DNA from: a virus
DNA: 64,000 nucleotides
IMG/VR virus record: IMGVR_UViG_3300032516_000005
Reading direction: 5' to 3' (one strand)
Shown: positions 50,913-53,910 of the stretch, piece after piece
How positions within the stretch are numbered: position 1 is the first letter of the stretch
Layout: each line of letters opens with the position of its first letter
Notes under the pieces: generated by a model
Databases searched by the model: none
The model's input: only the letters and a program-made list of their open reading frames with translations
Told to the model about the DNA's origin: nothing
Made by a program: the position numbers and the translations under genes

Positions 50913-51845
50913 ATGGCGACGGCGTTCTGCTATCCGTCGTTCCATGCGACGTTCGCGCCGCTCGTCGGCGGCGCCGCCGATCAGCGCTTTCTGTTTTCGG
51001 GTTGCAGCGTCAATTTCGAAGGCAACATCCCGTGCGCGCCCGAGGCCATGCGTGCAAGCGCCGAGAGGCAGCTCCAAACGTCAGGTTTCTGGCCGGTCGG
51101 CAAGCCGCTCGATCTCGCGACGTACACGCTCGCGCGCAACATCCAGAGCGAGGTCGGTGGCGGAACGGTCGAGGAACGTGTCGCTATCGGTGAATCGACG
51201 GTCAACCAAGGCAAGCTGCGAGGCCTGTCGCCACGCGATGCTGCACTAGCTGTTGCATTGTTTCGTCAACCGAGTCGGTTGTACGGCGCGATCAATACGC
51301 CCAGTGGGGGCAGTCTCGGCACGGGCCGGTTTACGTCGACAAACGCCGACCCGAACATCTTGACGACGCTCCTAGCTGATCTCGTCATCACAGGCCAGAG
51401 CGGTAACTTCAGCCAAGGTGCCGTCGATCAGGACGGTCTCGAATTCCGATCGTCGTTCCCAATTCCGATGAATCGAATCTTGAGCGAAGCGCAGAGCGGC
51501 AAGTTCTGGGTCGGTCCCTTGCCTGGTGTCGACCATTGGCACACGACGCTGTTCAATAAGCTCAATGTCAGTGCAGCGTCGCCGCAAGGAATTTTGCTGA
51601 TCGAACGCGCACGACAGTTCTTTGGCGCGCCCATCTACACAGGCAACCGCGTCGCGGCGAGCATGCGTCCAGTCTGGGCGGCAAACTTACCGATCTGCAG
51701 CAGCGTTTCGAGCACCGCTCCGTCGGGCCGTAGCGACTTCGCGAACTTCCTGATCGGTATGGGCGCCGTTGGCGGGCTGATTGGCCTCGGTTGGCTGTCA
51801 CTGCGCGTCGCGAAGAATCTGGCACAAGGACCCGCCGGTCGATGA
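50913..51845 (+). CDS. SleB/Hydrolase_2-like cell-wall hydrolase with C-terminal anchor
   Basis: TLARNIQSEVGG...ERVAIG...VN (catalytic Glu pattern); shared TM anchor. Confidence 0.6.
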   Translation: MATAFCYPSFHATFAPLVGGAADQRFLFSGCSVNFEGNIPCAPEAMRASAERQLQTSGFWPVGKPLDLATYTLARNIQSEVGGGTVEERVAIGESTVNQGKLRGLSPRDAALAVALFRQPSRLYGAINTPSGGSLGTGRFTSTNADPNILTTLLADLVITGQSGNFSQGAVDQDGLEFRSSFPIPMNRILSEAQSGKFWVGPLPGVDHWHTTLFNKLNVSAASPQGILLIERARQFFGAPIYTGNRVAASMRPVWAANLPICSSVSSTAPSGRSDFANFLIGMGAVGGLIGLGWLSLRVAKNLAQGPAGR

Positions 51846-52615
51846 ACGTTGTCGGTGAACGCATCCTGATCGTCGGCGACAGTCTGTCGCATCCAGGCCC
51901 CGACAAAGGCCCGTCGATCGTCGACATCACGACGCCGATCGGTGTGTCATCGGCGCCAGGCGAGCTGATCGCACGGCAGCTGCTTGCAGCCGGCGCACAG
52001 GCTGCGCGTGTCAACGCCAAGGTCGGACGCTCGGCGCGAAGCTTCCTATCGACCGAGAGCACGTTGCTCGCGCGCGATCAGATCGAGTTCCGGCCGACCA
52101 AAGTCATCGTCTGGCTCGGCACCAACGACATCGACGGCGGCCTCACGCCCGCAGCACTCGCCTCGACAGCCAACGCCATGGCGCAGATCCGCGATGCGTA
52201 TCGAGCGATGGGCGCTGAGGTCTTTGCGCTCGGCCCGCCAACGTACCCGAACGCGCGCTACAACAACGCCGCGCCGATCATGTTCGACGTGATCCAGGAC
52301 GTCTTCGGTGTTGATCATACATTCGACATCCGGCCATTCACGCCAGGCGCTGCCCGAACAGGTGACGGCATTCACTTCACGGCGGCGGGTGCAGCTGCCG
52401 TTGCACCAGGCATCGCACAAATGCTCGCGGCGCCGACAACCACCGTCAGCGAACAGTCGGGTATGTCCAACGGTGTGAAGTTCGTACTTGGTTTCGTAGC
52501 CGTCGCAGGTCTTGCAGGGCTCGGTTGGTTCACGCTGGGTATCGCAAAGCGCGCCGCGCAACGGCCAGGGCTGGCCGCTCGTGCACGACGACGCCAAGCG
52601 AATGCCTACACCTGA
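51842..52615 (+). CDS. SGNH/GDSL hydrolase with C-terminal anchor
   Basis: ILIVGDSLS, AKVG, WLGTND, DGIHF blocks. Confidence 0.88.
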   Translation: MNVVGERILIVGDSLSHPGPDKGPSIVDITTPIGVSSAPGELIARQLLAAGAQAARVNAKVGRSARSFLSTESTLLARDQIEFRPTKVIVWLGTNDIDGGLTPAALASTANAMAQIRDAYRAMGAEVFALGPPTYPNARYNNAAPIMFDVIQDVFGVDHTFDIRPFTPGAARTGDGIHFTAAGAAAVAPGIAQMLAAPTTTVSEQSGMSNGVKFVLGFVAVAGLAGLGWFTLGIAKRAAQRPGLAARARRRQANAYT

Positions 52616-53910
52616 TGCGCATCGTCACCTTCAATATTTTCCATGACACGCCACCACTAGCGCAGCGCTTGGCCACCGCAGCAACGTGGCTGCGGCAACT
52701 CGCACCTGATGTCGTGCTGTTACAGGAGGTGCAGCCAACGACGACTGCGCACGACCTAGCACGGCAAAGTGGATTTCCACATGTCGAGATCGGCAAGCGC
52801 CGTTCGGATGCAGATGAAGGTCTCGCGATTCTTTCACGTACGCCACTGTCGGACGTGCGTGTCGTGCTGTTACCAGAAGCTGAAGATCCAACTTGGGATC
52901 GCGTTCTTTTGTCGGCAACGACCGTAATCGGCGACCAGCCAATCTATGTCCACACGACGCACTTGAACTTCGCACGTACGGCCAGTGCAGTGCGTATGCG
53001 GCAAGTCCAGGCGATTTTGAATGTCATCGGTGTAGGTGGCGCACACGTCATTGGCGGCGACTTCAACGCCGAACCACAATCGCCCGAGATCGCGCTACTT
53101 CGGGCTGCGGGCTTCGTGGATGTTGGGCCAGCTGCGCCTACGTGGGCGAGCAAAAATCCCAGCGTACCGCCGCAGGCCGCACGACTGAATCTGAACCCCG
53201 ATCGAAAAATTGATTATCTGTTCGTGCGCGGTGTCGAAGCACGACCGGGCAACATCGTCCTCGATACGCCCATCAATAACGTTTGGCCTTCCGATCACTT
53301 TGCAATTCTCGCTGACGTTACGGCGCCTGCGCCCAAGAAGACCGCCGGCAAGAACGTGCTGCGCGGTATCGGTGCTGTTGCAGGTTTCGTGGGTCTCAGC
53401 TGGCTTGCATTGCACGTCGCTAAGCGTGCCGCACAGGGTTCTCGCGCGTTCGGTACGTCGAGCAAATCTGTTCCGCGGCTAGACCTCGACGATGAACATT
53501 GGCGCGAACAAGACGCGCTCTACAGCAGCACCGTCGAGATGTTGATAGATGCAGAAGGTTACGATCGCGACGAAGCACGTGACTCTGCAGAACTGGTTGT
53601 ACGCGACGAATTTCCAAATGACATTGGGTGGCAGCCTCGTCGAGTACGGCGTGCAACCGCTGAACGTCTGTGGACGCCGCCTTCACGAAAACGGCGACGA
53701 AACAAAGGCCTCGGTGCGACCGACGTCAAGCTCATCAAGCGCGTCGCGCAGCTGATCTCGTACGATGTCTCGAAGCAGGACATCCGTGAACAGCTCATTG
53801 CTGAAGGTTATGACGACGATGACATCTTCCAGGCGCACCAGGCCGCGAAGGTCTACCTGCGGCGCCGTGAGTTGCCTGACTCGAATTTCGGCGCGTTGGT
53901 CGACGATTAA
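52615..53910 (+). CDS. EEP (endonuclease/exonuclease/phosphatase) enzyme with anchor and C-terminal extension
   Basis: MRIVTFNI, DVVLLQEV, THL, GDFNA, IDYLF, SDH; TM; AFG, GLG and NFG motifs in the tail. Confidence 0.9.
   Translation: MRIVTFNIFHDTPPLAQRLATAATWLRQLAPDVVLLQEVQPTTTAHDLARQSGFPHVEIGKRRSDADEGLAILSRTPLSDVRVVLLPEAEDPTWDRVLLSATTVIGDQPIYVHTTHLNFARTASAVRMRQVQAILNVIGVGGAHVIGGDFNAEPQSPEIALLRAAGFVDVGPAAPTWASKNPSVPPQAARLNLNPDRKIDYLFVRGVEARPGNIVLDTPINNVWPSDHFAILADVTAPAPKKTAGKNVLRGIGAVAGFVGLSWLALHVAKRAAQGSRAFGTSSKSVPRLDLDDEHWREQDALYSSTVEMLIDAEGYDRDEARDSAELVVRDEFPNDIGWQPRRVRRATAERLWTPPSRKRRRNKGLGATDVKLIKRVAQLISYDVSKQDIREQLIAEGYDDDDIFQAHQAAKVYLRRRELPDSNFGALVDD

Follow-up and report, generated by a model that had tools for sequence, protein, structure and literature searches.

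The DNA analyzed here is a stretch of 64,000 nucleotides (nt), herein referred to as the window, from the IMG/VR virus record IMGVR_UViG_3300032516_000005, which represents an uncultured bacterial virus, large and presumably tailless. The system under study is an operon of four successive genes on the plus strand of this window, named p0, p1, p2, and p3 (Table 1). The open reading frames (ORFs) of p1, p2, and p3 are intact, and there are no gaps between the four genes. The end of p0 and the start of p1 are spaced by 2 nt, the stop codon of p1 overlaps the start codon of p2 in the sequence ATGA (51842-51845), and the stop codon of p2 and the start codon of p3 have one base in common in the sequence TGATG (52613-52617). 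The start codons used for these genes agree with the N-termini of the homologues. The first gene encodes a membrane protein, and the other three encode a SleB-fold enzyme, an SGNH/GDSL esterase, and an EEP phosphodiesterase. In each of these three unrelated enzymes, the catalytic domain is followed by the same kind of membrane helix, herein referred to as the anchor. We consider it very probable that this anchor is a homologous and portable membrane tether dedicated to hydrolases.

The anchor is a module of about 28 residues, formed by a Gly-rich helix, the motif AK-x-x-A, and a basic stretch. Pairwise identities between the anchors of p1, p2, and p3 are 15, 17, and 15 of 28 residues, and none of 20,000 composition-preserving shuffles reached the observed identity (maxima 11-13). 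Conservation extends past the hydrophobic stretch: both Ala residues of A-K-x-x-A are invariant and the Lys is nearly so. Two Gly residues are nearly invariant in the helix, where a GxxxG-like spacing is readable. A hidden Markov model (HMM) of the three anchors, compared with all six-frame ORFs of the window, matched only p1, p2, and p3 (54-61 bits; next best, 7.6 bits). Thus, the statement of a preliminary description of this DNA that three unrelated adjacent enzymes carry a homologous helix was confirmed.

Transmembrane (TM) helices are short, biased in composition, and easily alike, and the distant homologues of p1 have generic helices; these facts would favor a chance or compositional likeness of unrelated helices. 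Such a likeness has a negligible probability. It is refuted by the shuffles, by the conservation of the non-hydrophobic AK-x-x-A, by an HMM trained on the anchors of other cargo proteins (39.7 bits for p1 against at most 5.2 bits for the other C-terminal segments of the window), and by a profile search done without an index, in which just 8 clusters matched among 1.84 billion representatives, all of them with the same kinds of enzymes. Moreover, 38 other reading frames of the window have a hydrophobic C-terminal segment, and these scored no more than 5.2 bits, against 42-51 bits for the anchors of p1-p3, so the anchors resemble each other better than random TM helices do. About a dozen of these 38 frames are plausible tail-anchored proteins with a basic stub, and their scores do not exceed 0.4 bits. 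From these sequences, tail-anchoring is seen as a general habit of the late proteins of this virus, with helices unrelated to the hydrolase anchor. Examples of tail-anchored proteins are encoded at 15273-15926(-), 15761-16237(-), 20995-21828(-), and 40408-41163(+), and further examples at 41167-41919(+), 41923-42498(+), 42344-43474(+), and 44251-44727(+).

The anchor was also found in other viruses and in metagenomes. Among 5.8 billion proteins, 25 matches were found (E <= 3e-7), namely 8 SGNH proteins, 7 M23 peptidases, 7 members of the p1 family (P0001, P0015, P0035, P0036, P0046, P0159, and P0170), and 3 proteins with a transglycosylase-like N-terminal domain (P0124, P0162, and P0167). The latter domain has the look of a soluble lytic transglycosylase (SLT) when read by eye, with E-S-G-G followed by G-I-F-Q in P0162, P0167, P0174, and P0176; it had no match in Pfam, PHROG, or PDB, and its comparison with viral SLT by hhalign was negative (probability 1.3%). 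P0124 also has a domain at residues ~150-330, after the anchor and ahead of the C-terminal module, with a G-N-H-R motif that recalls ParB-like nucleases; this domain had no Pfam match.

The p1 family alignment retrieved 14 loci from IMG/VR, where single-protein scans with p1 and p3 gave no matches. A metagenome scan with a narrower alignment gave two contigs and added an operon with a p0-like gene, p1, and SGNH (L030). In a 221-kb relative rated 100% complete (L001/L002, G001), the operon consists of p0, an M23 peptidase (PF01551, 81 bits), a p1 orthologue, and an SGNH protein, and each of the last three bears the anchor. A second anchored M23-type peptidase is encoded 5 kb upstream of this operon and has its own palindrome of the type described below. 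With the whole record searched, this complete genome contains exactly four anchor copies, on the two M23 proteins, the p1 orthologue, and the SGNH protein. A 196-kb relative (G002) has two copies, on p1 and SGNH.

In total, the anchor carriers found are SleB-like proteins, SGNH proteins, two M23 types, a probable transglycosylase-like domain, and EEP, with no others. EEP has been found as cargo so far in this window alone; P0121, an orthologue with 58% identity, has a generic TM helix at its end. As far as these sequences go, the anchor is a rare module of a small clade, and all its carriers are envelope-degrading enzymes. This distribution agrees with the earlier description of the anchor as a plug-in module, which is also illustrated by an SGNH protein of a relative, P0122. 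Its anchor and tail are near-identical to those of p3, with a 20-residue identical run in the anchor, and therefore the anchor and tail have moved between an SGNH gene and the EEP gene. A role of the anchor as a general virion address did not hold, since wall hydrolases are its sole carriers and it is missing from the many other late proteins of this virus that have a tail anchor.

Homologues of p1 are represented in metagenomes by 120 proteins. When the HMM of other-cargo anchors was applied to them, 17 proteins scored at least 20 bits and 95 scored below 10 bits. Nearly all of the 120, including the low scorers, end in a TM helix, and the more distant relatives retain a C-terminal TM helix with a sequence unrelated to the anchor. 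In P0017, P0018, P0020, P0021, and P0026, the C-terminal anchor is absent, and a Gly/Ala-rich N-terminal helix is followed by Arg/Ser and by FG or LG. The DNA coding for the anchors is ~66% identical, with many third-position or silent changes, and the anchors have cargo-specific signatures across viruses, AKNLA on the p1 orthologues and AKRAAQ on the SGNH orthologues. Because of this DNA identity and these signatures, the anchor copies are judged old and kept by selection at the protein level. Recent gene conversion was considered as the source of the anchor similarity and rejected, given the ~66% identity of the DNA and the grouping of anchors by cargo type across viruses.

Table 1. Features of the p0-p3 operon (positions in the window; aa, amino acids; pLDDT, predicted local distance difference test)
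Feature	Position	Strand	Description	Basis
Palindromic operator-like box	50187..50202	+	GATCGC-N4-GTGATC, one mismatch; operon promoter, 30 nt upstream of p0 ATG	
TAGAAT	50220..50225	+	-10-like hexamer, 7 nt upstream of p0 ATG	Sequence reading
p0	50233..50910	+	First operon gene, 225 aa; conserved N-terminal domain, two-helix membrane hairpin, GFG, Arg-rich tail	
p0 membrane hairpin	50662-50838	+	About residues 144-200	
p1	50913..51845	+	310 aa; SleB-fold (lytic-transglycosylase-like), C-terminal anchor	120 homologues, model, alignment with SleB catalytic domain
p1 core	51099..51557	+	Residues 63-215, superposing on SleB catalytic domain; holds Glu80	Structure alignment
p1 anchor	51747..51830	+	Residues 279-306	HMM (39.7 bits with HMM from other-cargo anchors), shuffles
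p2	51842..52615	+	257 aa; SGNH/GDSL esterase (residues 8-188), C-terminal anchor, Arg-rich end	Pfam match, readable blocks
p2 anchor	52481..52564	+	Residues 214-241	HMM, shuffles
p3	52615..53910	+	431 aa; EEP phosphodiesterase (residues 1-240), anchor, small-module tail	PF03372, model
p3 anchor	53356..53439	+	Residues 248-275 (model helix 252-274)	HMM, model
AFG	53446..53454	+	Residues 278-280; 12-13 residues past helix, disordered linker	pLDDT < 50 at 275-290
Helical-hairpin mini-domain	53491..53610	+	Residues 293-332; helices 293-314 and 318-332	pLDDT 78-89
GLG	53707..53715	+	Residues 365-367; end of disordered Arg-rich linker	Model
Three-helix C-terminal module	53716..53883	+	Residues 368-423 (helices 371-418)	Model, pLDDT ~95
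NFG	53884..53892	+	Residues 424-426; before last five residues of p3	

The identities of the three enzymes given in the preliminary description stood for p2 and p3 at the level of family profiles and for p1 at the level of the fold only. No match to p1 was found in Pfam, NCBIfam, or PHROG at E <= 0.1. An AlphaFold model of p1, built from 38 homologues (pLDDT 90.4), was aligned by VIA-align with the SleB catalytic domain 4fet_A (Z 8.8, root-mean-square deviation 3.3, 114 of 122 residues aligned) and with a second SleB structure, 4f55_A (Z 8.4). These two were the only chains among 48,161 with Z >= 5, and the next chain had Z 4.2. A Foldseek search of PDB with the same model gave nothing significant, with SleB as a weak match at rank 26 (template-modelling score 0.60), and the profile of the 38 homologues matched only noise among PDB sequences, with no SleB. 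Thus, the term SleB-like is supported for p1 by the fold of the model and not by a family profile. Residue Glu80, a candidate catalytic residue, is invariant in the 38 homologues. It belongs to the first helix of the core, at a distance of 17 residues from the start of the aligned range. In SleB, a catalytic Glu is essential (PMC12331253). On the strength of the model, p1 is probably a lytic transglycosylase, cleaving glycan strands.

The SleB/CwlJ spore-cortex lytic enzymes (Hydrolase_2) have the same catalytic core fold as p1. The viral protein differs from them in the lack of a Pfam-level sequence match, in having ~60 extra N-terminal residues and ~55 residues after the core, and in having four conserved Cys residues and a membrane anchor and no peptidoglycan-binding N-terminal domain. 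The four Cys residues kept in the p1 family are found near residue 6, at C31, at C41, and in L-P-x-C just before the anchor, in a protein with no signal peptide. Disulfides between them, if formed, would point to action outside the cytoplasm.

The esterase p2 matches PF13472 (39.1 bits; cut-off 32.9) and PF00657 (35.0 bits; cut-off 23.6) and contains the conserved blocks I, III, and V, readable as GDS (residues 12-14), GTND, and DGIH. Its orthologues were found in L002, L003, L011, and L030. The phosphodiesterase p3 covers the whole profile PF03372 (84.5 bits; cut-off 24.5), and all the family-consensus motifs of EEP are present, namely N near the start, QEV, GGDFN, and SDH. In the AlphaFold model of p3, the pLDDT is 82 overall and exceeds 90 in the EEP part. 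The nearest structures found by Foldseek are the 5'-tyrosyl-DNA phosphodiesterase TDP2 (4gyz_A, E 5e-17, template-modelling score 0.80) and the uncharacterised bacterial EEPs 3l1w and 4ruw; neutral sphingomyelinase ranks lower. The preliminary description had viewed the three enzymes as an envelope-breaching kit. The list of cargo fits this view, and the hydrolysis of lipid or extracellular DNA proposed for the EEP member is, as modeled, one option among several, the nearest structures being TDP2-type and uncharacterised bacterial EEPs. The earlier remark that no signal peptide is evident proved correct: catalytic motifs of p2 and p3 begin at residues 1-14, and the N-terminus of p1 belongs to its fold.

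Past the anchor, p3 continues into a tail of small modules. In the model, each of the motifs AFG, GLG, and NFG is located in a disordered linker between folded modules, in agreement with the polyprotein-like tail described earlier. The helical-hairpin mini-domain is a variable middle module, and relatives have other sequence at this place. The boundary before the C-terminal module is placed alike in relatives, where QLG, GLG, or HG precedes that module. The three-helix C-terminal module is 85-91% identical in P0122 and P0123 (SGNH-anchor proteins), P0124 (with the transglycosylase-like N-terminal domain), and P0126 (a membrane protein with several passes). Copies of lower similarity were found in P0162, P0164, P0167, P0172, and P0176, which have up to three more modules, each behind xLG or xFG. 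The same NFG as in p3 is followed by further modules in P0122. The p3 copy of the three-helix module is the single one in the window; elsewhere this module also stands after the membrane helices of other proteins. No family was found for it, and the structure Atlas gave just short helical look-alikes.

These motifs allow another explanation, by which the helix, AK-x-x-A, and x(L/F)G at a set spacing form a processing or sorting tag recognised by a putative viral membrane-anchored C39-like protease. Anchoring would then be transient, and the protease would trim the tails or, in the variants with an N-terminal anchor, free the enzyme. Consistent with it, 23 of 41 anchor proteins have [FLM]G downstream of the helix, at a spacing of 9-16 residues (mostly 12), the motifs of p3 lie in disordered linkers between folded modules, the module boundaries of relatives coincide with xLG/xFG, and the p1 variants with an N-terminal TM helix have FG or LG between the helix and the catalytic domain. 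However, p1 and p2 of the window keep the anchor with no [FLM]G after the helix, and a tag for a general maturation protease is not expected on hydrolases alone. We therefore consider a processing tag improbable as the function of the anchor.

The region upstream of the operon contains a palindromic box, as claimed earlier. The consensus of this palindrome in the genome is GATCGC-N4-GCGATC, and 24 boxes were observed in the window, where 0.8 were expected. The copy of the operon has one mismatch, and the box stands in the same place in the equivalent operons of three relatives: L002 (6733-6748), L003 (7308-7323), and L030 (3772-3787). The distance between the box and the first gene is 29-33 nt across the four viruses (31 nt in L030). 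The number of boxes in the window and the presence of the same box before the operon place the operon in one late regulon with the presumed particle genes. The hexamer TAGAAT was not called by a consensus promoter scan; given its position 7 nt before the ATG, a leaderless p0 transcript is possible, judging from the sequence. The DNA of the region had no matches in 50,697 phage records.

Additional features were observed outside the operon. The intergenic region 49770-49905, upstream of the operon, contains ~11 head-to-tail copies of the 12-nt unit GGGAATCGGCCT. In the three plus-strand frames, this array would read as (GLGI)n, (WESA)n, or (PGNR)n, and it is probably non-coding. The presumed structural region of the window contains an ORF at 33953-34960 (-) that resembles LAGLIDADG homing endonucleases (PF14528, E 4.5e-9). 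In the same region, the ORF at 30767-33124 (+) encodes a protein of 785 aa, which matches von Willebrand A weakly.

The first gene of the operon, p0, had zero matches in Pfam, PHROG, and NCBIfam and matched no holin family. Orthologues of p0 stand upstream of the hydrolases in L002, L003, and L030, and a protein with the p0-type N-terminal domain precedes the hydrolases in all four anchor-bearing viruses examined. In L030, the gene before p1 (3819-4166) encodes a single-TM form, with the p0 N-terminal domain, one TM helix, GFG, and an Arg/His-rich tail. Small proteins encoded away from the hydrolase gene in distant relatives (G005, G008, G009, G010, and G011) have a hairpin with 33-59% identity to that of p0, and in G005 (43875-44513) it is present as two tandem copies. 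By its sequence, it looks like a core membrane protein of this virus group. An exclusive co-occurrence of p0 with the anchor was rejected, as the hairpin is widespread across the group.

Based on these data, the following mechanism can be proposed. The p0-p1-p2-p3 operon very probably encodes envelope-degrading enzymes tethered to a membrane by one homologous module. Since the anchor helix is conserved in sequence and the other tail anchors are generic, this helix probably makes specific helix-helix contacts, and its partners could be further anchors or a protein like p0. Through such contacts, the enzymes would come together in a single patch of the membrane, which may also include p0. This patch would most likely belong to an internal membrane of the virion, the place of PRD1 P7/P15 and PM2 P7, and the enzymes would open the wall at entry, possibly again at exit. 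By analogy with those lysins, the placement of the anchored enzymes in the virion membrane for use at entry is proposed tentatively, at slightly less than an even chance. An action at entry, or at entry plus exit, is put forward with equal reserve, and the explanation taken whole, the best that we can offer, commands just under half of our confidence.

Within this mechanism, the p2 esterase may strip the O-acetyl group from C6 of N-acetylmuramic acid (MurNAc), after which p1 may cleave the glycan. O-acetylation of MurNAc at C6 blocks lytic transglycosylases and is removed by SGNH Ape esterases (PMC6627197, PMC6174289, PMC7083599), and SleB-type genes were linked to O-acetylation loci (bioRxiv 10.64898/2026.07.21.739787). 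In P0018 and P0026, the p1 domain is fused directly to SGNH. The constant pairing of p1 with SGNH and this occasional fusion fit, at the sequence level, a pair of enzymes that would de-acetylate and then cleave.

Several observations weigh against a location in the virion and a use at entry. The EEP family has no established wall substrate, and an internal membrane of this virus is presumed from the many tail-anchored ORFs. In 41 anchor proteins, the flanks of the helix have a mean charge of about -0.7 (10 residues on the N-terminal side) and +3.3 (15 residues on the C-terminal side), so by the positive-inside rule the tail would be cytoplasmic and the catalytic domain outside. This topology, also predicted for the lysis protein M4Lys (PMC7143992), is difficult to attain for proteins with no signal peptide. 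The gene order, a small membrane protein with a basic tail followed by hydrolases, resembles a holin-endolysin cassette. Finally, the complete genome G001 contains no SLT, Amidase_2, phage-lysozyme, or NlpC/P60 gene to act as a separate endolysin, these being the four other endolysin families searched.

The last three of these observations also argue for a lysis cassette only, with p0 as the holin and p1-p3 (also M23 in relatives) as endolysins whose C-terminal TM domain keeps them at the cytoplasmic membrane. By this account, the Gly-rich anchors would co-oligomerise, with or without p0, and form or join a membrane lesion, so that all the enzymes would reach the wall at once. The order of genes is classical for such cassettes, the hydrolases being translationally coupled, and the GxxxG-like spacing of the anchors suits oligomerisation. 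Endolysins that end in a TM domain are known; M4Lys, in which positive charge also follows the helix, needs this domain for holin- and Sec-independent lysis (PMC7143992). Additionally, the complementary activities on glycan, peptide, and ester bonds recall the LysA/LysB sets of actinophages. On the other hand, the p0 hairpin is 48-59% identical in distant relatives, away from p1, which is unusual for fast-evolving holins. The relative G002 has, distant from its operon, a soluble M23 protein (L027 511-1038, 175 aa, no TM helix) and an SLT-domain protein (L028 543-1301(-)), which are possible separate endolysins and could be the true ones. The polyprotein-like tails after the anchor, up to 380 residues long, have no role in simple lysis. 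Moreover, the lysis enzyme P15 of PRD1 sits in the virion membrane, so the two roles are compatible (PMC5380687). A cassette serving lysis only is thus rather unlikely, though it is the most serious of the alternatives. The location of the enzymes in the virion is favored by the tail-anchoring habit, the shared regulon, the long post-anchor tails, the conserved p0 hairpin, which is unlike a holin, and the extra soluble M23 and SLT genes of one relative.

A bolder version of the virion location would treat the anchor as a sequence-specific intramembrane address, made up of a Gly-zipper-like helix, AK-x-x-A, and x(L/F)G at a set spacing and read by p0 or another core membrane protein, that loads fused enzymes at one site of the particle membrane, e.g., an entry vertex. 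The chains of mini-domains would then be polyproteins freed on the other membrane face by the putative viral C39-like protease, and the whole would form a programmable system for loading and processing. This version is doubtful.

Membrane-tethered muralytic enzymes of phages are already known, and the tethered wall enzymes of tectiviruses, corticoviruses, and a few tailed phages were each described singly, with their own helix. What is new here is a homologous, portable, hydrolase-dedicated tether that is shared by at least six catalytic domains; also new are the xLG at a fixed distance downstream, the optional multi-module tails, and the occurrence of this system in large tailless viruses of a lineage not described before. 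The combination of one conserved helix with so many domains, all in wall hydrolases, implies that its role goes beyond holding a protein in the bilayer; it probably mediates the specific assembly of a multi-enzyme wall-breaching patch. If this is true, it gives a handle on the entry or exit machinery of unexplored tailless viruses of 70-220 kb and on how proteins without signal peptides reach the wall, and foreign enzymes could be targeted to the phage membrane. The pairing and fusion of the SleB-fold and SGNH domains suggest a viral answer to peptidoglycan O-acetylation.

Among the known systems, the closest in layout are the membrane-associated virion lysins PRD1 P7 and P15 and PM2 P7 (PMC5380687). 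The lytic transglycosylase of PRD1 gene VII (P7) and gp23 of the Rhodococcus tectivirus Toil begin with a lytic domain and end with a TM domain (PMC5773508). The layout of this group matches that of p1-p3, with the wall-degrading domain first, a C-terminal TM helix, and no signal peptide. The likeness extends to the viruses, which are tailless and have many small membrane proteins, and to the presence of more than one lysin per virion in the PRD1 type (PMC5380687, PMC5773508). In contrast to the PRD1 type, the TM helices of different enzymes are here homologous, portable, and restricted to hydrolases; the cargo includes an SGNH esterase, M23, and EEP; and some members have long multi-module tails. 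The genomes are 10-20 times larger than in the PRD1 type, and a place of the enzymes in the virion is proposed.

Endolysins of tailed phages provide a second comparison. M4Lys of Salmonella phage BSPM4, the endolysin of Hafnia phage Enc34, and LysAP of Acidovorax phage AP1 have the catalytic domain first, then one C-terminal TM helix followed by positive charges, and no signal sequence (PMC7143992, PMC8943055, PMC8879335). The TM domain of M4Lys is essential to its function (PMC7143992). These are, however, single enzymes, for which a shared anchor, post-anchor modules, and the AK-x-x-A / xLG signature were not described. In modular endolysins, one targeting module (LysM, SH3b, or PG_binding) is recombined with many catalytic domains, like the exchange between P0122 and p3, but the targeting module of p1-p3 is a membrane helix and not a wall-binding domain. 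The signal-arrest-release (SAR) endolysins are similar in that their muralytic enzyme is held at the membrane by a weakly hydrophobic helix rich in Gly and Ala. The SAR domain is N-terminal and Sec-dependent, with positive charges on its N-terminal side, whereas no N-terminal SAR helix was found in p1-p3, where the helix is C-terminal and the catalytic motifs are N-terminal; even in the p1-family variants with an N-terminal helix, the positive charges come after it.

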